This document shows, piece after piece, positions 12,690-20,236 of a DNA stretch of 64,000 nt. Positions within the stretch are counted from its first letter, which is position 1, and each line of letters opens with the position of its first letter. The DNA lies in the NCBI GenBank assembly GCA_017416685.1, contig JAFQBN010000012.1, positions 59,950 through 123,949 of the forward strand, in the 5' to 3' direction. The position numbers and the translations under genes were made by a program. Origin of the DNA: Oscillospiraceae bacterium (GTDB lineage Bacteria; Bacillota; Clostridia; Oscillospirales; Oscillospiraceae). The notes below the pieces were generated by a model, which searched no databases, was not told where the DNA came from, and saw nothing but the letters and a program-made list of their open reading frames with translations.

Positions 12690-12789
12690 GCTGACATCTC
12701 CTTTTTCAATCATGTACACTTTACCCGCTTTGTCCTTTTTTGTCAATAGAAAAGCCGGGACTTTCAAGGGAAAGTCCCGGCTTTTTGTC

Positions 12790-13725
12790 TTATTCCAGCA
12801 CCCGGCGCAAATTGTTGAAAAACAGGTCTTCCAGTTCCGCCGTTCCATAGCCGTGGTCGGCCAGCGCCTGCCAAAGCTTTGGCACGCTCTGCACCCCGGT
12901 CATTCCTCCGGCCAGCCTGTCGCACCCATCCAAATCACCGCCCAGACACAGATGCTTGGCCCCTCCCAGATCCATAAAGTGGTCAATGTGGGCAATCAAA
13001 TCCTCCATGGCGGGTCGGTCTGTGTCCCCCACAAACCGAACCCAGAAGTTGATACCCACCACGCCGCCGGTCTGCACGATGGTACGGAACATATCGTCGG
13101 TCAGGTTGCGGGTATGGTCACACAACGCCCGGGCGTTGGAATGGGTCGCCACGATCGGCTTTTGCGTTATGTCAGCCAAATCCCAAAATCCCGGGTCGGA
13201 CAGGTGGGAAACGTCCAGCAGGATATTCCGTTTCTGGGCCTGACGGACAAATTCACGGCCCACATCGCTCAATCCCCGCTCCCGGTCCTCCACGTTGCTG
13301 CCGGACAGGGCGTTGGCGTGGTTCCATGTTGGATTGACACAGCGCACCCCCACCTCCTGCGCCCAGTCCAGCTTATCGGGGTCGCAGTCCAGCAGTTCGC
13401 CCCCCTCCACGCTCAGCACGGCGGCGATCCTGCCCGCCTCCAGCGCAGCGTCAATTTCCGCCCCGCTGCGGCACCCGGCCATCACACCGGCATGCCTTTG
13501 ACAGGACTCGTCAAACAGCTGCTGCTGCCGCCGACACATGGCGAACAGACCTCCCTCCACGGGTATGGCGCTGTCGTGGTAGATGGCAAAGATCTGCCCC
13601 GCCTTTTGAAAGGCAGACAGCCGCTTCAAATCCAGCTGACCGTCATTTTCCCACAGGCAGGTGTCACGCTCCAAACAGCGGGACAGTGTGTCGCAGTGGG
13701 CATCAAAATACGGTATGGTATTCAT
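12790..13725 (-). CDS. Membrane dipeptidase (peptidase M19 family)
   Basis: DAHCD, LSVEGG, TWNHAN, DVSHLS, ATHSNARAL..RNL, GGDLDG. Confidence 0.9.
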   Translation of the reverse strand: MNTIPYFDAHCDTLSRCLERDTCLWENDGQLDLKRLSAFQKAGQIFAIYHDSAIPVEGGLFAMCRRQQQLFDESCQRHAGVMAGCRSGAEIDAALEAGRIAAVLSVEGGELLDCDPDKLDWAQEVGVRCVNPTWNHANALSGSNVEDRERGLSDVGREFVRQAQKRNILLDVSHLSDPGFWDLADITQKPIVATHSNARALCDHTRNLTDDMFRTIVQTGGVVGINFWVRFVGDTDRPAMEDLIAHIDHFMDLGGAKHLCLGGDLDGCDRLAGGMTGVQSVPKLWQALADHGYGTAELEDLFFNNLRRVLE

Positions 13726-13797
13726 AGACATCCTCCGTTTTTGTTCCTGCAATATGATATGCCGCCCTCCGTTTTGATAGGACAGAGGGCGGCTTTT

Positions 13798-14553
13798 TCA
13801 CTTTACTTTATCTCCAAACAGCCGCAGGGCATTATCCCGCAGGATGTTTTGCTTATCCTGCTCACTGATAAGAGCATACTCCACCCGCCCACGCTGGAAG
13901 CCGGGGGAATAGGTATCCGTACCGAACAGGATGCGTTCCGACCCGATGCGTCCTACCGCATACTCCAGCAGCGCGTTTTTGGAACTGGCGATACCGGAGG
14001 TATCTGTCCACACGTTGCCGTGGCGGGCATTGGCCACCGCATCCACATAATGCTCGTCCCCCAGATGGGCGACAATAAATGTCACGTCGGGGTAACGGTC
14101 GGCAATGGGGAGGATATAGTCCGGCTGCTCCTCCGGGTGAATGAGTACCACCGCCCGCCGCCCGGCAGCAAAGGAGAACAGCTTGTCCGCATGCTCGGGC
14201 AGCGAATATTGGTGGTACAGGGGGTGGAGCTTGATGCCCACGCATTTTTCCCCGGCCAGCATCCGCTCCGCCTGCTCAAAGGTCTTCGGGATGCGGGGAT
14301 CCATGACTACCCACTGGTACAGGCGCTCTTCCCGCCTCACAAGGTCAAAGAGGTATTCGTTTTCTTCCACGATATACTCCGTGGTACGGACACTTGCAAA
14401 GGTGGAGCAGAGCATCTTCCCGATTCCCGCCCCATCGTTGACCCGATAGAGCCAGTCGGGCATAGCGGAGTAAACCGGGGTCTGCTCCGCCGAGGCATCC
14501 TCCGGATGTCCGTGGTTGATGTGGGTATGGCTGTCAATGGCGATCAAATCCAT
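13798..14553 (-). CDS. Amidohydrolase family (TIM-barrel) protein
   Basis: DSHTH, GIKLHP, IHP, AHLG, RILFGTD motifs. Confidence 0.85.
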   Translation of the reverse strand: MDLIAIDSHTHINHGHPEDASAEQTPVYSAMPDWLYRVNDGAGIGKMLCSTFASVRTTEYIVEENEYLFDLVRREERLYQWVVMDPRIPKTFEQAERMLAGEKCVGIKLHPLYHQYSLPEHADKLFSFAAGRRAVVLIHPEEQPDYILPIADRYPDVTFIVAHLGDEHYVDAVANARHGNVWTDTSGIASSKNALLEYAVGRIGSERILFGTDTYSPGFQRGRVEYALISEQDKQNILRDNALRLFGDKVK

Positions 14554-14569
14554 ACGCCCACCGCCTTTC

Positions 14570-14998
14570 TTAAAAATTCAATCGCGTGGACAGGTTGCCA
14601 TGGGTGTGCAGGCTGACCGCCTTCTCCATAAAGGGAACGGTCACATCAAAATGCTCCGCCAAACTATAAAGGTCGGTACAACCCCGGGCCACGGCGGCGT
14701 CCAGTTCCCGGGCGGGAACCAGCTGCTCGATGGCCCACTTGTCCGCTTTGTACTCGTGCTTGGCGACCAAATCGTAGGGGCTGCTCACCCGGTGGGTGGC
14801 CCCGGTAGCCACATGGCCGCCCTCATGGGCTACCACCACCCGCTCTTCCGCGCTGGTGTGGATATTGTCGAAGTCCATGAAAATGGCGTACCGGCCGTCC
14901 AATTCGATGGTTGCGGCCTGCCGGTCGTCCAAATCCCAGTGGTAAAACCTGACCCCCGCGCGGTTCAGTTTGTCATACAGGGCCAGCGTTTTATCCAT
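14570..14998 (-). CDS. ImmA/IrrE family metallo-endopeptidase (anti-repressor)
   Basis: HExxH motif (VVAHEGGH), E.KADKWA..L, LAEHFDVT..FM; directly downstream of an XRE repressor. Confidence 0.88.
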   Translation of the reverse strand: MDKTLALYDKLNRAGVRFYHWDLDDRQAATIELDGRYAIFMDFDNIHTSAEERVVVAHEGGHVATGATHRVSSPYDLVAKHEYKADKWAIEQLVPARELDAAVARGCTDLYSLAEHFDVTVPFMEKAVSLHTHGNLSTRLNF

Positions 14999-15000
14999 AG

Positions 15001-15339
15001 TCAACCTTCCTTTCCGTTCTGCAGCTCCTTGTTAAAGAAGCGCGCCATTTCCAGCAGCATCTGCTTCTTCTCCTCAGGCAGGTCGCGGGATTCATTGTAA
15101 AGCGCGTAGGTGAAATCGTCGAAGTCCAGTTGCTTTTTCGGTTCGTCCCGCATAAGAGAACTGATGTCGATGTGCAGGGCATCGCAGATCTTCACCATGG
15201 TTCCGGTCCCAATGCCGTCCACACCGCGGGTAAACATATTTCGGATGGTGGTGGCAGGCACACCGATCTGCTCGGCAAATTTGGAGATGTTTCCGTACTG
15301 CTTGGCAATTTGTTCCTTCAGATATTCCACCTGGGACAT
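15001..15339 (-). CDS. XRE-family HTH repressor (ImmR/CI-like)
   Basis: N-terminal HTH ISKFAEQIGVPATTIRNM..TMVKICDALHID; C-terminal 'DDFTYALYNESRDL.EEKKQMLLEMARF'. Confidence 0.88.
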   Translation of the reverse strand: MSQVEYLKEQIAKQYGNISKFAEQIGVPATTIRNMFTRGVDGIGTGTMVKICDALHIDISSLMRDEPKKQLDFDDFTYALYNESRDLPEEKKQMLLEMARFFNKELQNGKEG

Positions 15340-15388
15340 ATTGCTTCCTCCCATCTGTTACAGCGTTTTCCGCTGTTTCTCTGACCCC

Positions 15389-15417
15389 ATTGTAACGCAA
15401 TTGAGTTTTAATTGCAA
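15389..15417 (-). promoter_or_regulatory. Leftward sigmaA promoter for repressor/immA
   Basis: Minus strand TTGCAA-17bp-TACAAT; an operator lies in its spacer. Confidence 0.7.
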
Positions 15418-15543
15418 GCACATTTTTACTTAATTGAGTAATTTTTTTATTTTCCCTCTTGACATATTACTCAATCGAGTGTATATTGCACTTGTAGCTA
15501 CTCGATTGAGTATTTTCGCTCAGTGGTGAAACTCAATTGAATT
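15394..15543. promoter_or_regulatory. Five 14-bp palindromic operators, consensus WACTCAATTGAGTW
   Basis: AACGCAATTGAGTT 15394-407; TACTTAATTGAGTA 15427-440; TACTCAATCGAGTG 15468-481; TACTCGATTGAGTA 15499-512; AACTCAATTGAATT 15530-543. Confidence 0.85.
15459..15487 (+). promoter_or_regulatory. Rightward sigmaA promoter for the lytic-direction operon
   Basis: TTGACA-17bp-TATATT; operator 3 occupies the spacer. Confidence 0.8.
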
Positions 15544-15603
15544 GTTTGTGCCTACAGAATATCAAACCGACAGTACCATAATCCGGACAGAAAGGAGTGT
15601 GCC

Positions 15604-15639
15604 ATGAAGTTTATTGTGCAAGGAGGTGAGGACGAATGA
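15604..15639 (+). CDS. 11-aa leader ORF MKFIVQGGEDE
   Basis: AGAAAGGAG SD 6 nt upstream; its TGA overlaps the next ATG (ATGA). Confidence 0.45.
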   Translation: MKFIVQGGEDE

Positions 15640-15884
15640 CACCGGGAACTATGGGACTGCTGCCCCCTCTGCGGGACAGTCAGCAGTGTCCTCCGGCGGG
15701 GTTGTGTCCCCGCTGCTGCGGGGAGTTCTACCCCGGGGAGGCCCGTTTCGTATGGGATGGCGTGCCGGTCTGCACCGACTGTTTCCGCATGGCGGCAGGT
15801 CATTGGCTGGAGCGCTTTCCCATCGAGGCGGCACTGGCCCTGCAGGTGCAGGTGCTGCTACCGGAGAGGGGGTGGCTCACTTGA
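15636..15884 (+). CDS. Hypothetical 82-aa protein with two CxxC pairs (possible Zn ribbon)
   Basis: GGAGGTGAG SD; CPRC...CTDC; overlaps the next ORF start. Confidence 0.65.
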   Translation: MTPGTMGLLPPLRDSQQCPPAGLCPRCCGEFYPGEARFVWDGVPVCTDCFRMAAGHWLERFPIEAALALQVQVLLPERGWLT

Positions 15885-16123
15885 CCCTGAAGGAATTGGC
15901 GGTGGAATACCGTCAGGGCGCTCAGCTTTTGGCCGGGCGCATCCGGGAACTGGCCGCCCGGCGCAGCAGGACCCACGACAGGACGGAGCAGCTTGTGCTG
16001 GAGGGGCGGATGGCACCTTTGATCGAAATGCGCCGTCAGGCCCAGCAAACTGCCCGGGACTGCGAACGCTATTACAACACAGGAGGTGTCTGCCGTGGCA
16101 AAACCACGCTACCGCCGGGGTAA
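15881..16123 (+). CDS. Hypothetical 80-aa helical protein
   Basis: TTG start after GAGAGGGGG; MTLKELAVEYRQGAQLLAGRIREL... predicted helical hairpin; part of ORF-track 15614..16123. Confidence 0.65.
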   Translation: MTLKELAVEYRQGAQLLAGRIRELAARRSRTHDRTEQLVLEGRMAPLIEMRRQAQQTARDCERYYNTGGVCRGKTTLPPG

Positions 16124-16418
16124 CCCCTACAGCCGGGACATGGCCGCCTATATGCGCCAGCTGTCCGAGCAGAATACCAATACCAACAGCATGGAACAGC
16201 TCCGACACAATCTGGTCCGATGTCTGAACGAGGACATCACCCCACGCCAGCGGACTATGCTGACCATGTACTACGTTCAGCAGCTCAGTCAAAAGGAGAT
16301 CGCACGGCAGCTGAACGTGGACCGTTCCACCGTGTCCCGCACGATCCTGCGGGGGGAGCGGCAGCTGCAGCGCTGCCTGCGTTACGGCGCGGAGCGTTAT
16401 CTCAAACACATGAAATAA
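16095..16418 (+). CDS. Sigma70 region-4 type HTH protein (late-activator-like)
   Basis: GTG start after AGGAGG; ITPRQRTMLTMYYVQQLSQKEIARQLNVDRSTVSRTILRG is a region-4 HTH; no sigma region 2. Confidence 0.8.
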   Translation: MAKPRYRRGNPYSRDMAAYMRQLSEQNTNTNSMEQLRHNLVRCLNEDITPRQRTMLTMYYVQQLSQKEIARQLNVDRSTVSRTILRGERQLQRCLRYGAERYLKHMK

Positions 16419-16428
16419 GGAGGAACCT

Positions 16429-18573
16429 ATGATTCAATTCAACAACTGGCAGATCTGGGCCGACCCGCGGCTCACGCTGCAGCAGAATGACCATCTCAGC
16501 CGGGAGCTGACCGTTTCCGGTCCCCTGCCCGAGGGCTGGGACTGGACCATGCTGGTACAGGTGGACGGACAGATGGACATCTGGCCCCTGCAAAAGAATC
16601 CGGATGGCTGTGCATCCATCCTGCTCACTGCCCAGCAGCTCGGCCCCGGCGGCTTCTACCGCATGCAGCTGCGGGGAACGAAAGGAGATGTCACCCGCCA
16701 CACCAACGTCATCACCCTGTTTGTCCCCCGCTCTCTCTGCGGGGACAAGCAGTGGCCGGTGCTGCCCACCGAGTTCTCTGAGCTGGAACGGCGGGTGAAA
16801 GGCTATGCCTCCCACCCGCCTGTGGCGAACGACCACGGCTATTGGCAGCTTTGGGACGGCGAGAAGTACACGGACAGTAGCGTGCCGGTCACCGGCGGCA
16901 TCCGGAGCGTGTCCTACAATGCCGATACCTGGCGCTGGGAGGTCCTTTACATGGACGGCCGAATTGACAGCTTCCCCGGTCCCAGCCCCATCGAGGGCGA
17001 CAAGTTCACCATCCACCGCAACAGCTTTGAAAGCTACCCGGTGGGTGAGGACACCTTTTTCAGGGCCGACCCCCGGTATGAATACTTCGACGACCACCAC
17101 GGCGACGTCAACAGCGACAGCTACGCTACCTACGGCATCGCTGAGGTGGACGGCAGCAAGGTGCTGAAGCTGCGCTGTGTGAACAGTACCACCCACAAAT
17201 TCGACACTATGGAGCCTGTGGTGGGGGCATACACCGTCGGTCTGGACTTCAAGCTGGAGACCACCGTGGCCGGTTCCCGACCCGGCATCATGGTCAACCC
17301 GTTCAACGAGTATCGGTTCGACCACCAAAGCGGCACTATCACAGCAACCGTCCGGGCCGGAGATTATGCCCGCATTACTGACACAGGCACCACCGGCAGC
17401 CAAATGGTCTACTGGATGACGAACAAGGACGGCACACGGTTTATCCCAAAGGAAAATCTGTGGTACTCCATGCAGGTGCGAGTTGAGCTGGGGCGCATGG
17501 TACTGCGCCTTTGGGAGCGCGGGGACGAGGACACAGCTTTGGAGGTCGTGTGCGAGACTGCCGCCATCGGACAGCGAGCCATGGAGTTTGCGAAATATTG
17601 GGCCGTTTACACCTACGCGCCCGGCTCCGCATCTCAGCCTGTTCCAACCGGTGAGCATACCATTTGGCTGGATGAGCTGAAGGTGTGGCGCGACCTGACC
17701 GGCTCAGCCGGCAAAGACGGTGAGGACGGCAAGGCCGGAACAGGTCTTGCCGACTGGCGGTACAACGCCGACACGTGGCGCTGGGAGCAGGTCTATACCG
17801 ACGGCAGTATCAAGACTTTCCCCGGCGACAGTCCCATAGACAGCCGGTTCACCTTCTTCAGGGACGACTTCGAGGGGTACGCCGTCGGGGAGGATAACTT
17901 CCTTGCACAGACGGACCACTGGCAGGGTGCCGCCAGCAGTGCCATACATTACGACGTGGTGTCGGACGGCGTGCAGCGCTGTTTGCGGTTCCGGGTGAAT
18001 GACAGTTCGTCCCGCGCTGTGGCTACTTTGAACTATCCCATTTCCGGCAGGGCGACTGTCCAGTTCGACTACAAGCCAACCCCGGCGGACAACAGCGGAG
18101 GACTCACCGACCTGCTGGATATTCGGGTGTTGGGCAACACTGTGCGTGCCGGTGTGAACTTCTACAACCAATGCTACATCCACACCCCTGCGGGCGCCGG
18201 ACCCATTCGCGATGCGGCGGGCAATATCTACCGCATGGACGAAAGCATTTGGTATCGGGTGAAGCTGACCGCCGAGGTGGGCCGCGTGACCATGAAGGTA
18301 TGGAAGCGGGACACCGAGACAGAGCCGGACGGTACCAACGGCGGCGTGACCGTGCTGGAACACGCCATCGTTACCGAGGAACTGCTGCAGGCCGAGCGGC
18401 AGCTGCGGTTTGAGTTTGGCCCCATGAACTACACGAGCGCAGCCGGCGAGCATGTTGCCTATCTCGACAACGTGATGGTGTGGCGTGACCTGTGGACTGA
18501 GGCCGACAGGGACGAGATCGTCAGCCGGGTGCTGGCTGCACTGCCCGCCAACAGCAAGGAGGTAAATCAATGA
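16429..18573 (+). CDS. 714-aa phage tail-fibre/baseplate-like protein with two tandem beta-rich (lectin-like) domains
   Basis: BppU-like N-terminus, HPP...GYWQLWD spacer, two repeats starting YNADTWRWE and ending VWRDL, GKDGEDGKAG collagen-like linker, C-terminal TEADRDEIVSRVLAALP. Confidence 0.7.
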   Translation: MIQFNNWQIWADPRLTLQQNDHLSRELTVSGPLPEGWDWTMLVQVDGQMDIWPLQKNPDGCASILLTAQQLGPGGFYRMQLRGTKGDVTRHTNVITLFVPRSLCGDKQWPVLPTEFSELERRVKGYASHPPVANDHGYWQLWDGEKYTDSSVPVTGGIRSVSYNADTWRWEVLYMDGRIDSFPGPSPIEGDKFTIHRNSFESYPVGEDTFFRADPRYEYFDDHHGDVNSDSYATYGIAEVDGSKVLKLRCVNSTTHKFDTMEPVVGAYTVGLDFKLETTVAGSRPGIMVNPFNEYRFDHQSGTITATVRAGDYARITDTGTTGSQMVYWMTNKDGTRFIPKENLWYSMQVRVELGRMVLRLWERGDEDTALEVVCETAAIGQRAMEFAKYWAVYTYAPGSASQPVPTGEHTIWLDELKVWRDLTGSAGKDGEDGKAGTGLADWRYNADTWRWEQVYTDGSIKTFPGDSPIDSRFTFFRDDFEGYAVGEDNFLAQTDHWQGAASSAIHYDVVSDGVQRCLRFRVNDSSSRAVATLNYPISGRATVQFDYKPTPADNSGGLTDLLDIRVLGNTVRAGVNFYNQCYIHTPAGAGPIRDAAGNIYRMDESIWYRVKLTAEVGRVTMKVWKRDTETEPDGTNGGVTVLEHAIVTEELLQAERQLRFEFGPMNYTSAAGEHVAYLDNVMVWRDLWTEADRDEIVSRVLAALPANSKEVNQ

Positions 18574-18875
18574 TCGACCTGACACCTTTGTTCAACGCTG
18601 TCATTGCCGCAGCCGCCGTGGCCATCAGCGTATTCTTTATCCCGTGGCTGCGCAGTAAAACCTCCGCCCAGCAACGCTCCGACCTGCTGCGCTGGGCGGA
18701 CATCGCCGTGGCGGCGGCACAACAGCTGTACCATCAGTGCAGTGGGCAGACCCGGCTGGACTACGCCCTGTCCCTGCTGGCCGAGCAGGGGTTTGACGTG
18801 GACCTGCGGCAGGTGCGGGATGCGGTAGAGGCCGCGGTGCTGAAACTGCACGCCGCCGGGGAGGCTGCCCAATGA
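18570..18875 (+). CDS. Phage holin (LL-H-like)
   Basis: 101 aa, one N-terminal TM, 'IAVAAAQQLY..G..RLDYA..L...G........IEAAV'-type pattern; precedes the lysin. Confidence 0.85.
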   Translation: MIDLTPLFNAVIAAAAVAISVFFIPWLRSKTSAQQRSDLLRWADIAVAAAQQLYHQCSGQTRLDYALSLLAEQGFDVDLRQVRDAVEAAVLKLHAAGEAAQ

Positions 18876-19522
18876 CCGCCGAACGAATTTTGGCCGTTGC
18901 CCGGGATGAGTTGGGCGTAACGGAGCTGCCTGCCGGCTCCAACCGCGTGAAATACAACGCCGTCTACTATGGCCGGGAGGTATCCGGCAGTTCCTACCCA
19001 TGGTGCTGCGTGTTCCTGTGGTGGGTGTTCCGGCAGGCCGGGGCGGCGGACCTGTTTTTCGGCGGCAAGCAAACCGCCTACTGCCCTGCCCTGCTGGATT
19101 TCCACAGGAAGCAGCGGGTGACAGACTACCGGCCCGGGGACATCATTTTCTTCAACTTCAACGGCCGGGGCAGTGCCGCCCACGTGGGTCTGTGCGAAAG
19201 CTGGGACGGCAAGCGCATTACCACCATTGACGGAAACACCGGCGCCGGCAACGAAGCCAACGGCGGCGCAGTCATGCGCCGTACCCGGGACAGGAAATAC
19301 ATCGTGGGGGCCTATCGCCCCGCTTACAGAAAGGAGGATACTGTGACGCAGGAACAGTTTGACGCCATGCTCACCGCCTGGCTGGTTCGACAGGCCGCAC
19401 AGCCCGCCAGCAGCTGGAGCCGCATGGATGAAGCAAAAGCCGCCGGCATCACCGACGGCACCCGTCCGGGCAGTTTCGCCACCAGAGAGGAGGTCGCCAC
19501 CATGATCATGGCCGCCCGTTAA
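18872..19522 (+). CDS. CHAP-domain endolysin with C-terminal SLH-like anchor
   Basis: YPWCCVF (Cys), AHVGL (His), TIDGNT; tail EAKAAGITDGTRPGSFATREEVATMI. Confidence 0.88.
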   Translation: MTAERILAVARDELGVTELPAGSNRVKYNAVYYGREVSGSSYPWCCVFLWWVFRQAGAADLFFGGKQTAYCPALLDFHRKQRVTDYRPGDIIFFNFNGRGSAAHVGLCESWDGKRITTIDGNTGAGNEANGGAVMRRTRDRKYIVGAYRPAYRKEDTVTQEQFDAMLTAWLVRQAAQPASSWSRMDEAKAAGITDGTRPGSFATREEVATMIMAAR

Positions 19523-19526
19523 CGGG

Positions 19527-19565
19527 CAGGCGCGGGGCGTGCGAAGGGGGCGCGCCCCGCGCCTT
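19527..19565 (+). terminator. GC-rich hairpin closing the lysis operon
   Basis: AGGCGCGGGGCGTGC...GCGCGCCCCGCGCCTT. Confidence 0.6.
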
Positions 19566-19591
19566 ACCGGGGGATATTTTTTCAAAAAGGC

Positions 19592-19620
19592 TTTACAAAT
19601 ACGCCCGGGTGCTTTATAAT
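19592..19620 (+). promoter_or_regulatory. sigmaA promoter of the tRNA
   Basis: TTTACA-17bp-TATAAT. Confidence 0.75.
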
Positions 19621-19636
19621 ATGCTTTGTTCTGTTT

Positions 19637-19712
19637 GGGCCTATAGCTCAGCTGGGAGAGCGTACGGTTCGCATCCGTAAGGTCGTCGGTTCGATCCCGA
19701 TTAGGTCCACCA
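19637..19712 (+). tRNA. tRNA-Ala(CGC)
   Basis: 76 nt, GGGCCTA/TAGGTCC acceptor with G3:U70, anticodon arm TACGG-TTCGCAT-CCGTA, T-loop GGTTCGATCC, encoded CCA. Confidence 0.95.
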
Positions 19713-19746
19713 AAAGGCAGTCGCCCGTCCGGGCGGCTGCCTTTTC
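19713..19746 (+). terminator. tRNA terminator
   Basis: AAAGGCAGTCGCCCG-tc-CGGGCGGCTGCCTTTT. Confidence 0.8.
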
Positions 19747-19867: not shown

Positions 19868-20236
19868 ATGGGTAAAAAAGAATGGAGCATCGTGGACGGT
19901 TACCGTCCCCCCCTGCACAAGGGTGACTCCAAGGACTATCGCGGCCACGAGTGCGTGGTCATCCTAAACCGCAATGAGCAGGACGCCCACTGCCTGATCG
20001 ACATCTACTTCGAAGATCGTCCCCCGGTCAAGGGCATCCCCTTCACCGCCCCGGCGGAGCGGGTCAGCGCCTTCTACACCGACGACGAAAGCCTGTTCGG
20101 CGGTATCGGCCTTGACATCATGGTGCAGTACTCCATGTACATCCGCAGCGACGTGGATGTGGTGGTCCAGTACGGCCGCATGGACGTCAACCAGGACAAC
20201 CTGGCCTACATGGTCACCATGGGGTACGGAGAATAA
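19868..20236 (+). CDS. ASRT (Anabaena sensory rhodopsin transducer)-family protein
   Basis: MGKKEW.I.DGY.P..GHE.V.ILN...DA...IDIYFEDR.P..V.AER..QYS..I.SDV.VVVQYGR.D pattern. Confidence 0.8.
   Translation: MGKKEWSIVDGYRPPLHKGDSKDYRGHECVVILNRNEQDAHCLIDIYFEDRPPVKGIPFTAPAERVSAFYTDDESLFGGIGLDIMVQYSMYIRSDVDVVVQYGRMDVNQDNLAYMVTMGYGE

Follow-up and report, generated by a model that had tools for sequence, protein, structure and literature searches.

Introduction

Among the described phage-derived systems, the ones closest in layout to the locus analyzed here are PBSX and other "grounded" prophages of Firmicutes, PBSX having the gene order xkdA-xre ... xpf ... xkdV-xkdX-xhlA-xhlB-xlyA. The locus in question is a module of about 5 kb (14570-19522) within a 64,000-nucleotide (nt) stretch of contig JAFQBN010000012.1 from an Oscillospiraceae bacterium (the whole stretch is referred to as the window), where genes for an ImmA-type protease and an XRE-type repressor face a rightward series of small open reading frames (ORFs), a sigma-70 region-4-only protein (sigma-r4), a tail-fibre-like "payload", a holin and a CHAP lysin. 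This module is collinear with the ends of PBSX and resembles PBSX and its like in having an SOS-type repressor switch, a sigma-like putative activator that precedes the terminase genes in the module's intact relatives, and, as seen in related modules and in the siphophage locus L107, a right end consisting of a fibre, an XkdX-like gene, an XhlA-like gene, a holin and a lysin (the XkdX-like and XhlA-like labels are our presumption from size, position and sequence character, no family match having been obtained). Vertical inheritance and purifying selection are features it shares with defective prophages generally. PBSX, however, keeps terminase, head, sheath, tube and baseplate genes and makes particles, whereas the module has none of these and measures about 5 kb as opposed to about 28 kb; furthermore, unlike incomplete prophages generally, the module keeps its lysis genes (PMC7744054). 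Xpf, the sigma-like factor of the SOS-induced PBSX, contributes to lysis (PMC4243946), and both the domestication of defective prophages and the enrichment of tail fibres in incomplete prophages are known in general.

A likeness of another kind is to the pathogenicity locus (PaLoc) of C. difficile (TcdR, TcdE, TcdL) and to the type 10 secretion systems (T10SS) of Yersinia entomophaga, Serratia and Salmonella, where a dedicated regulator, a large cargo devoid of a signal peptide and a phage-derived holin and hydrolase are likewise gathered in one locus. TcdR-type regulators are complete group-5 sigma factors, whereas the regulator of the module has region 4 only (107 amino acids, aa); the module also differs in its ImmA/XRE control, its LLH holin, its cargo (a phage tail fibre in place of a toxin or enzyme) and in that release is predicted here from the genes, while the cargo of PaLoc and T10SS is released by lysis of a subpopulation (PMC12485765, PMC10847048, PMC9527704). 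As this likeness is one of function only, the module is not filed as a member of either system.

The left part of the module, in turn, is built like the ImmA/ImmR pairs of ICEBs1 and phage phi105 and like CapP/CapH, with an M78 protease beside an XRE protein and a divergent promoter region with repeated operators. Pairs of both types de-repress the adjacent operon after DNA damage, CapP/CapH being an ImmA/ImmR-type pair that controls non-phage operons, many of them immune; the operon of the module, in contrast, contains neither transfer genes nor a recognised immune effector, and its ImmA matches CapP only weakly (E 6.7e-5, PADLOC). Tailocins and gene transfer agents (GTAs) are also domesticated phage parts under host control, having a dedicated lysis cassette and fibre cassettes swapped for target range, and the fibre, lysis and regulator genes of GTAs lie in loci apart from the structural cluster. 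For the module, unlike for these, no partner structural cluster is known in the genome of the window, and the sole candidate partner, found in GCA_017502285.1, is a complete prophage with terminase and capsid. Phage satellites (P4-like elements and phage-inducible chromosomal islands, PICI) are comparable as small elements, the module possibly relying, as they do, on helper structural proteins and possibly cross-activating late genes, as is done by P4 Delta and P2 Ogr; unlike satellites, it lacks genes for an integrase, replication, packaging and capsid remodelling as well as recognisable att sites, and is chromosomally inherited, not mobile. Chimeric particles assembled from satellite and helper parts have been described (10.1101/2025.02.11.637232).

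In the literature searched, we found no description of a 5-kb unit that consists only of switch, late activator, fibre and lysis genes, is chromosomally fixed without particle genes, is conserved under selection across species and genera, and has a hot-swapped receptor-binding slot shared with resident phages. The common view of defective prophages is that of decaying debris or of whole-particle domestications (tailocins, GTAs, PBSX), whereas the module is a much smaller unit that has stayed intact in abundant gut anaerobes while exchanging its receptor-binding cassette with live phages, which makes testable, in one small locus, why bacteria keep the lysis genes of dead phages. Should the interpretation given below be true, gut phage host range would be partly encoded outside phage genomes, a large unannotated family of N-terminal fibre anchors would gain a role, and a natural, compact, damage-inducible release cassette usable in Clostridia would be available.

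Conservation and Selection

The module is a chromosomally fixed and selectively maintained derivative of a temperate phage, and we hold with moderate confidence that it is a functional SOS-inducible fibre-plus-lysis locus. To judge from sequence comparisons, purifying selection has kept it intact in many species of Oscillospiraceae, so that it very probably has some function still. Window positions 12753-19712 are collinear with loci L003/L004 at 87% nucleotide identity (left flank and module; the right flank aligns separately, at 81%), and in the GTDB representatives L066 (a metagenome-assembled genome, MAG, from goat caecum) and L067 the module is likewise found between Amidohydro_2 and tRNA-Ala, i.e., at an identical site, all module ORFs being intact in 4/4 lineages sharing the site. 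The ratio of nonsynonymous to synonymous divergence (dN/dS according to NG86, omega; ORFs of related loci were taken from a codon-usage-scored caller trained on the gene calls of L001, as 60% GC DNA yields long spurious ORFs) amounts to 0.03-0.17 over eight module genes versus L003 and to 0.01-0.24 over the module genes versus L066 and L067, while the pairs L070/L075, L069/L077 and L074/L077 give 0.03-0.31 at a dS of 0.16-2.0; over the six lineage pairs compared overall, it is far below 1 for every gene. In the comparison with L067, the dS of the module (0.50-0.81) equals that of the flanks (0.52-0.71), so the module has diverged in step with the chromosome.

The preliminary description of the window, made from the DNA alone, had suggested checking whether the string immA-XRE-small ORFs-sigma r4-X-holin-lysin recurs in other Oscillospiraceae with slot X varying between conserved flanks, and this is what was seen. 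The module, complete or cut short by the end of the contig, is present in ten loci, which come from nine GTDB species representatives (MAGs of Oscillospiraceae and Lawsonibacter); the flanks contain an integrase or a virion-body gene in 0/10. In type-1 modules (L070, L071, L073, L075), orf82/orf80 are present, small XkdX-like and XhlA-like genes are added, and the lysis genes are those of an LLH holin and a CHAP lysin, while type-2 modules (L069, L072, L074, L077) lack orf82/orf80 and have a lysin with a different catalytic domain and the same C-terminal domain. Most modules of both types adjoin the DEAD-PspC-acetyltransferase or AdoHcyase-GDSL block that in the window is found a few kb away from the module, but in the opposite orientation; their flanks are made up of host genes (e.g., SpoIIE, MBL hydrolase, transporters). 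Most tail and slot proteins received no names from PHROG or Pfam.

Could the module be a neutral remnant of a recent deletion, intact for want of time? Its content is wholly phage-derived, it adjoins a tRNA gene, and truncated versions exist elsewhere (L068, L044, L076, L078); the architecture, however, has been kept at one locus through a dS of about 0.5-0.8 with all ORFs intact and an omega of 0.01-0.24, a like pattern is present in three further lineage pairs, and no full prophage lies at the site in any of the four lineages that share it, which leaves such a remnant highly improbable. When metagenomes were scanned with the Amidohydro_2 flank for an empty site or a complete prophage there, the yield was three loci, all distant and uninformative. 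The recurring gene string, the low dN/dS and the lack of a full prophage at the site in sister lineages together lead us to reject both random decay, which the preliminary description had already argued against, and recent deletion.

Phage Origin

By its gene order and homologies, the module is the two ends of a temperate phage of these hosts in a PBSX-like layout, from which the packaging, head, tail-body, integrase and replication genes are gone, since intact phages carry each of its halves. In the myophage loci L105/L106, orf80 (43-55% identity) and sigma-r4 (62%) are followed at once by terS, TerL, portal, protease, capsid, sheath and tube genes, a position ahead of the terminase that is the classical one for a late-gene activator. 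The other half is found at the right end of siphophage L107, with a fibre, an XkdX-like gene (81% to that of L075), an XhlA-like gene (74%), a holin, an LLH-type holin and a CHAP lysin (64-66%), as well as in L007, where a ConA-type fibre is accompanied by a holin (68%) and a CHAP lysin (73%). Relatives of the ImmA/XRE pair, at 47-66% identity, are found in full-size viral contigs, and in L044 such a pair lies beside a tyrosine integrase at tRNA-Tyr together with an orf82-like early gene. For CHAP, ImmA and sigma-r4, the nearest copies found in phages were 73%, 64% and 62% identical, respectively.

Gene Content

Every gene named in the preliminary description is present, intact and on the strand claimed for it, as judged from Pfam and PHROG matches and from reading the sequence (Table 1), and its "three small ORFs" are indeed there, being an 11-codon leader, an 82-aa Cys-rich ORF and an 80-aa helical ORF. 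The tight packing reported earlier is likewise evident from the coordinates, with neighbouring ORFs either overlapping or at most 10 nt apart: with a TTG start at 15004, the ImmA gene shares 4 nt with that of XRE (its called start, 14998, leaves a 2-nt gap instead), orf82 and orf80 overlap, orf80 and sigma-r4 overlap by 29 nt, and there are 4-nt overlaps between the payload and holin genes and between those of the holin and the CHAP lysin. The sigma-r4 stop codon TAA (16416-16418) continues into GGAGG, which as a Shine-Dalgarno sequence serves the payload ATG at 16429, just as had been described. From the leader ORF to CHAP there is no terminator and no promoter gap.

Table 1. Features of the module and its right boundary (window coordinates), followed by orf80/sigma-r4 pairs standing alone in other loci (coordinates of the respective locus; for L044, the original ones).
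Feature	Position	Strand	Basis or remark
ImmA-type M78 metalloprotease, presumed anti-repressor, 142 aa	14570..14998	-	PF06114 E 1.4e-6 (above cut-off); phrog_87 metallo-protease E 1e-19; HEGGH motif
XRE/Cro-CI type HTH repressor, 112 aa	15001..15339	-	HTH_26 E 1.6e-6; phrog_8/phrog_4 transcriptional repressor
Divergent switch, two promoters and five operators	15355..15603		promoter and repeat analysis
Leader ORF, 11 codons, MKFIVQGGEDE	15604..15639	+	stop overlaps orf82 start (ATGA)
orf82, Cys-rich (CxxC...CxxC) small early protein, 82 aa	15636..15884	+	weak match to phrog_4331
orf80, helical hairpin, 80 aa	15881..16123	+	alignment
Sigma-70 region-4-only protein, presumed late-gene activator, 107 aa	16095..16418	+	PF08281 (Sigma70_r4_2) E 1.6e-12; TIGR02937 E 5e-15
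Payload, tail-fibre/receptor-binding protein without signal peptide, 714 aa	16429..18573	+	homology; AlphaFold/Foldseek
Holin, LLH family, one N-terminal transmembrane segment, 101 aa	18570..18875	+	PF09682 E 8.6e-9; phrog_6918 E 1e-22
Endolysin, CHAP amidase/peptidase domain and C-terminal domain (aa ~155-216)	18872..19522	+	PF05257 E 1e-10; phrog_21357 E 8e-32
tRNA-Ala(CGC), right boundary, outside the module	19637..19712	+	own promoter 19592-19620; strong bidirectional terminator 19712-19745
Stand-alone orf80 and sigma-r4, L093	7787-8324
Stand-alone orf80 and sigma-r4, L096	7787-8321
Stand-alone orf80 and sigma-r4, L103	8742-9282
Stand-alone orf80 and sigma-r4, L095	7742-8273
Stand-alone orf80 and sigma-r4, L044	8939-9452

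Integrase, replication, terminase, capsid, tube, sheath and tape-measure genes are absent from at least 8 kb on either side of the module, which extends to its surroundings what had been said of the module itself, and sheath, tube, baseplate and head genes are found neither in the module or the at least 8-kb flanks in the window nor in the 10 related loci. No intergenic debris was seen at the module either, in keeping with the "no pseudogene debris" of the preliminary description, and no att-like flanking direct repeats were found.

The Switch, the Lysis Cassette and the Presumed Activator

The divergent switch claimed earlier holds up, with two promoters and five operators that are kept in three relatives. 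In the divergent region, 250 nt in length, a rightward promoter close to consensus (TTGACA-17-TATATT, 15459-15487) is paired with a leftward one (15417-15389), and the operator palindrome ACTCAATTGAGT occurs in it in five copies with one mismatch each (at 15395, 15428, 15469, 15500 and 15531), of which one lies between the rightward -35 and -10 and another just downstream of that promoter. The 64 kb as a whole contain 6 matches to the palindrome, versus 1.2 expected by chance, the sixth having two mismatches and single-mismatch copies being confined to the switch. All five operators and the promoter hexamers are invariant across the four lineages (window, L003, L066, L067), and the leader ORF keeps its start, length and stop in the latter three, its interior being variable. 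ImmA is 96-99% identical in these relatives (omega 0.01-0.03), XRE has an omega of 0.06-0.08, and the two genes are predicted to be co-transcribed. With its HEXXH-type motif, an adjacent co-oriented XRE gene and divergent promoters with repeated operators, this part of the module has the sequence features of an ImmA/ImmR-type switch.

The lysis genes are also under constraint (omega 0.05-0.18 for the holin and 0.06-0.12 for the CHAP lysin) and have the arrangement of a holin-endolysin cassette, a small membrane holin directly upstream of a signal-less peptidoglycan hydrolase, the CHAP lysin having no N-terminal hydrophobic leader or signal peptide. The C-terminal ~60 aa of the lysin (phrog_18208) recur at 58-72% identity on lysins with unrelated catalytic domains, both in phages and in type-2 modules, and probably form a host-specific wall-binding domain.

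As for the block between the leader and the payload, orf82 (omega 0.10) is absent from type-2 modules and has homologues among the early genes of the ImmA-bearing prophages L036, L038 and L044. The usual partner of sigma-r4 is orf80, present in type-1 mini-modules, stand-alone pairs and intact myophages and absent only from type-2 modules; no Pfam or PDB relative of it was found. The idea that orf80 might be the missing sigma region 2 of a split sigma factor was rejected, as it is a helical hairpin without sigma-2 motifs or a PDB/Pfam relative and is absent from type-2 modules. Since sigma-r4 scores below the cut-off of NF005385, the "positive control sigma-like factor" model (E 4e-7, 29.7 bits versus a cut-off of 136), Xpf is treated as an analogue and not as a family assignment. 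A scan of viral contigs with sigma-r4 alone gave no match, the homologues having come from a protein search. In L044, L093, L095, L096 and L103, the orf80 and sigma-r4 pair stands alone in host chromosomes, devoid of switch, payload and lysis genes, often adjoining tRNA-Thr/tRNA-Tyr, facing a LexA-like HTH_3 + Peptidase_S24 repressor in L095 and lying immediately upstream of rpoN in L044, which suggests a domesticated trans-acting regulator. With no obvious promoter to serve inside the module and with stand-alone survival elsewhere, the activator may plausibly act in trans on other loci, such as prophage late operons.

These three parts could also be combined into an abortive infection system, whereby ImmA/XRE would, like CapP/CapH, sense phage-induced DNA damage or single-stranded DNA and trigger premature lysis, sigma-r4 would mistime the late genes of the invader and the fibre would poison its baseplates. 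The weak match of ImmA to CapP, the control of many immune operons by CapP/CapH after DNA damage, the 62% identity of the activator to that of intact myophages, which makes cross-talk plausible, and the retention of the lysis genes under selection all speak for this, but PADLOC shows no known defence effector among the module proteins, only weak regulator-type matches, and baseplate poisoning would not select for intact, repeatedly swapped receptor-binding cassettes; we consider such a system quite improbable.

Several partial or doubled forms of the module may be mentioned here in their own right. In L068, only the switch and the activator block are left, and just past the truncated module (about 13500-17000 of the reverse complement) lies a 35%-GC island in a 60%-GC genome with ORFs of 385, 443 and 181 aa, one of which resembles a restriction-system specificity subunit. 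In L076 and L078 (ImmA 67-68% identical), an ImmA-XRE pair lies opposite a row of four small ORFs (74, 81, 174-201 and 83 aa, DUF6291 being the third), after which host genes follow; fibre and lysis genes are missing from these remnants. MAG JAZNMM01 contributes two contigs, L069 and L072, with near-identical type-2 modules whose N-domains are 100% identical and whose payloads measure 869 and 876 aa, a doubling that may be either strain heterogeneity in the bin or a true duplication.

The Payload Fibre

The 714-aa payload ORF matches no Pfam or PHROG model and has only 16 close homologues among 5.8 billion proteins. P0004, which is 77% identical to it, ends the full tail module of the phage-like locus L005 ahead of a lysis cassette and is preceded there by a 1290-aa tape measure, a DUF6711 protein and a 515-aa tail protein (phrog_13879/phrog_6616), and homologues in L089/L090 (a myoprophage) and in L107 occupy the same position. 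The statement of the preliminary description that the module has no virion genes therefore needs a slight correction: the payload itself counts as a virion gene, given its identity to the gene that ends the intact tail module of L005.

In the AlphaFold model of the payload (predicted local distance difference test, pLDDT, of 72), an N-terminal Ig-like sandwich (aa 1-~110) gives way to a helix (aa 115-126) and a small beta unit, after which come two tandem jelly rolls, which are modelled as ConA-like/LamG lectin domains (about aa 190-420 and 470-687) and for which Foldseek returned legume lectins, galectin-8, laminin LG domains and the Hc domain of botulinum toxin (BoNT), along with phage "ConA-like lectin/glucanase" and minor tail proteins. 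The earlier suggestion of a glycan-binding payload is in agreement with this lectin-like fold, as far as the models go. The gene has an internal repeat (16915-16994 / 17761-17840), and its omega is 0.10-0.25 per segment, anchor (0.12) and lectin domains alike.

When modelled alone, the N-terminal domain (payload aa 1-120, window 16429-16788) gave a pLDDT of 81 and only weak fold matches, and no Pfam or PHROG model matches it. An exhaustive search found it in 525 clusters at 50% identity (409 with E <= 1e-10), always at residues 1-120 of proteins of 127-1199 aa, a distribution that is the signature of a conserved fibre anchor bearing interchangeable binding domains. The payload itself is chimeric: residues 1-110 are 92% identical to L003 but 50% to phage L005, while residues 111-714 are 73-90% identical to L005 (82% nucleotide identity between the C-terminal cassettes), and in P0003 the same C-terminal part is joined to an N-domain of a different clade. 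In the metagenomes X4 and X5, the module is shared and the segment from about 16775-16793 (payload aa ~116-122) to about 18606 (the start of the holin) is replaced, and in L066, L067 and L073 the payload slot holds a 200-aa anchor protein and a separate protein of 230-280 aa. The N-domain clades follow the module lineages. Read in this way, the payload is a receptor-binding protein, the C-terminal cassette of which is exchanged between strains and phages.

Such exchange raises the matter of whether the module might be a mere recombination reservoir of no gain to the host, its apparent constraint stemming from repeated overwriting by functional phages, in which selection acts. The clear exchange of fibre cassettes with phages, an XkdX-like gene that is 98% identical between a module and a prophage of one MAG, and the general enrichment of tail-fibre genes in incomplete prophages are all in line with that. 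Nevertheless, ImmA, XRE, sigma-r4, holin and CHAP track host lineage and site (81-99% identity within the site-A clade versus 38-77% to other clades), their dS equals that of the flanks, and the nearest phage copies found (see Phage Origin) are much more distant. With the core genes following the host and the phage copies that far removed, gene flow is seen only at the fibre slot, and we would give little credence to a reservoir of this sort.

Resident Phages and Proposed Function

Assembly GCA_017502285.1 is a MAG in which a mini-module (L075/L091, payload P0011) co-exists with a complete myoprophage on another contig (Rep, HNH, terS, TerL, portal, capsid, sheath, tube, tape measure, baseplate J, fibre P0010, holin and amidase genes). 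P0010 and P0011, both about 50% identical to the window's anchor, share 78% identity over the first 221 aa and 65% over the last 238 aa, the XkdX-like genes that follow them are 98% identical, and in the N-domain tree the prophage fibre P0010 is nested among the mini-modules of the same host clade. No sigma-r4 was present within 2 kb upstream of terS of this myoprophage, the region covered. Judging by these relationships, the module fibre falls into one compatibility group with phage fibres from the same cell, in our view the strongest pointer to function, and the paralogy of the fibres could mean docking on prophage baseplates, ongoing gene conversion, or both.

If the module is indeed a functional fibre-plus-lysis locus, it might work as follows. 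At rest, XRE would sit on the operators that overlap the rightward promoter and repress it (the layout is observed, while binding is inferred), until DNA damage or an equivalent signal leads ImmA to cleave XRE, by analogy with ImmA/ImmR and CapP/CapH. A single polycistronic transcript starting near 15.49 kb would then cover the leader, orf82, orf80, sigma-r4, fibre, holin and lysin, and the holin and CHAP lysin would lyse the cell and release the signal-less fibre. The fibre may serve as a trans-acting accessory, that is, as an alternative fibre for the baseplates of co-resident or infecting phages that changes the binding of the particles, and the module would probably also cross-activate late genes and add lysis capacity. 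The cassette exchange with phage fibres and an anchor that matches the fibres of resident phages make such an accessory role the most likely one for the payload, and, of the roles listed in the preliminary description, that of a fibre for a phage encoded elsewhere is thus favoured (by the likeness of P0010 and P0011 and the clade match), if unproven, whereas those of a decoy or an adhesin are less so. Within the reading of the module as a functional locus, this donation of fibres seems possible, though short of probable, and the broader proposal, namely that there is a class of host-fixed, non-mobile "fibre-donor" loci, not described before, in which a minimal phage relic fires on the damage signal of the resident prophages, activates their late operons in trans through sigma-r4/orf80, loads its own hot-swappable receptor-binding fibre on the baseplates and adds lysis capacity, is tentative and somewhat doubtful. 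Were it to be true, it would be the bacterium, not the phage, that sets the target range of the particles released, its prophages being weaponised or retargeted.

The same lysis could also free the payload as a soluble lectin, in the manner of PaLoc and T10SS, with lysis of a subpopulation or leakiness releasing a glycan-binding fibre that acts as a phage blocker or decoy, an adhesin or a matrix protein without any helper. The succession of regulator, large signal-less cargo, holin and hydrolase mirrors TcdR-toxin-TcdE-TcdL and the T10SS loci of Yersinia and Serratia, the two ConA-like domains are lectin-like, the locus has no particle genes, and the 82% nucleotide identity of the C-terminal cassette to that of the L005 fibre means that the released protein could compete for the receptor of that phage. 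A free blocker, however, would need no N-terminal anchor, and yet the anchor is conserved, occurs N-terminally only, in all of the modular fibre-like clusters, has clades that track the module lineages, matches the fibres of resident prophages and is accompanied by XkdX-like fibre-accessory genes in other modules. A soluble lectin, accordingly, seems unlikely to us.

Several points weigh against the module being a functional locus that supplies fibres to phages. Lytic functions are usually the first to be lost in incomplete prophages (PMC7744054), and the retention of the lysis genes, running against the trend in defective prophages as it does, can be read as pointing to function or as a warning. 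Only 10 nt separate sigma-r4 from the payload, which leaves no room for a late promoter through which the activator could act within the module. No RNA run was found to contain the locus. The N-domain matches only weakly the baseplate proteins TP901-1 BppU, 80alpha and NF5 with E values of 0.01-0.04, no better than generic FN3. The truncated forms (L068; L044, L093, L095, L096, L103) show the payload-lysis half to be dispensable in some hosts. The 78% and 98% identities between module and prophage come from one MAG and may reflect gene conversion, not docking, and for the genome of the window, of which 64 kb are in view, no helper phage is known.

Flanking Region

The flanks consist of housekeeping genes. 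To the left, the module is bordered by Peptidase_M19 and Amidohydro_2 genes and, to the right, by genes for an Anabaena sensory rhodopsin transducer-like protein (ASRT), an acetyltransferase, PspC and a DEAD helicase. The tRNA-Ala(CGC) gene directly 3' of the lysin had been missed in the preliminary description; the same order is found in L003, L066 and L067. Its promoter is near-consensus (TTTACA-17-TATAAT), and its bidirectional terminator has a 15-bp stem. That this tRNA gene served as attB is unsupported, as it lies downstream of the lysin, its 5' end faces the module, and a search for repeats of its 3' end yielded none. Metagenome depth over 19592-19745 rises to up to 701x versus about 10-100x nearby, a spike explained by the tRNA sequence being common to many genomes. 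In L003 (8544-15629) and L004, a 2005-aa SLH/BNR-repeat surface protein and an AraC regulator, absent from the window, are encoded between tRNA-Ala and ASRT. The ASRT gene (19868-20236; PF07100, E 9e-31) is 95-97.5% conserved among the relatives, in what is a gut anaerobe.

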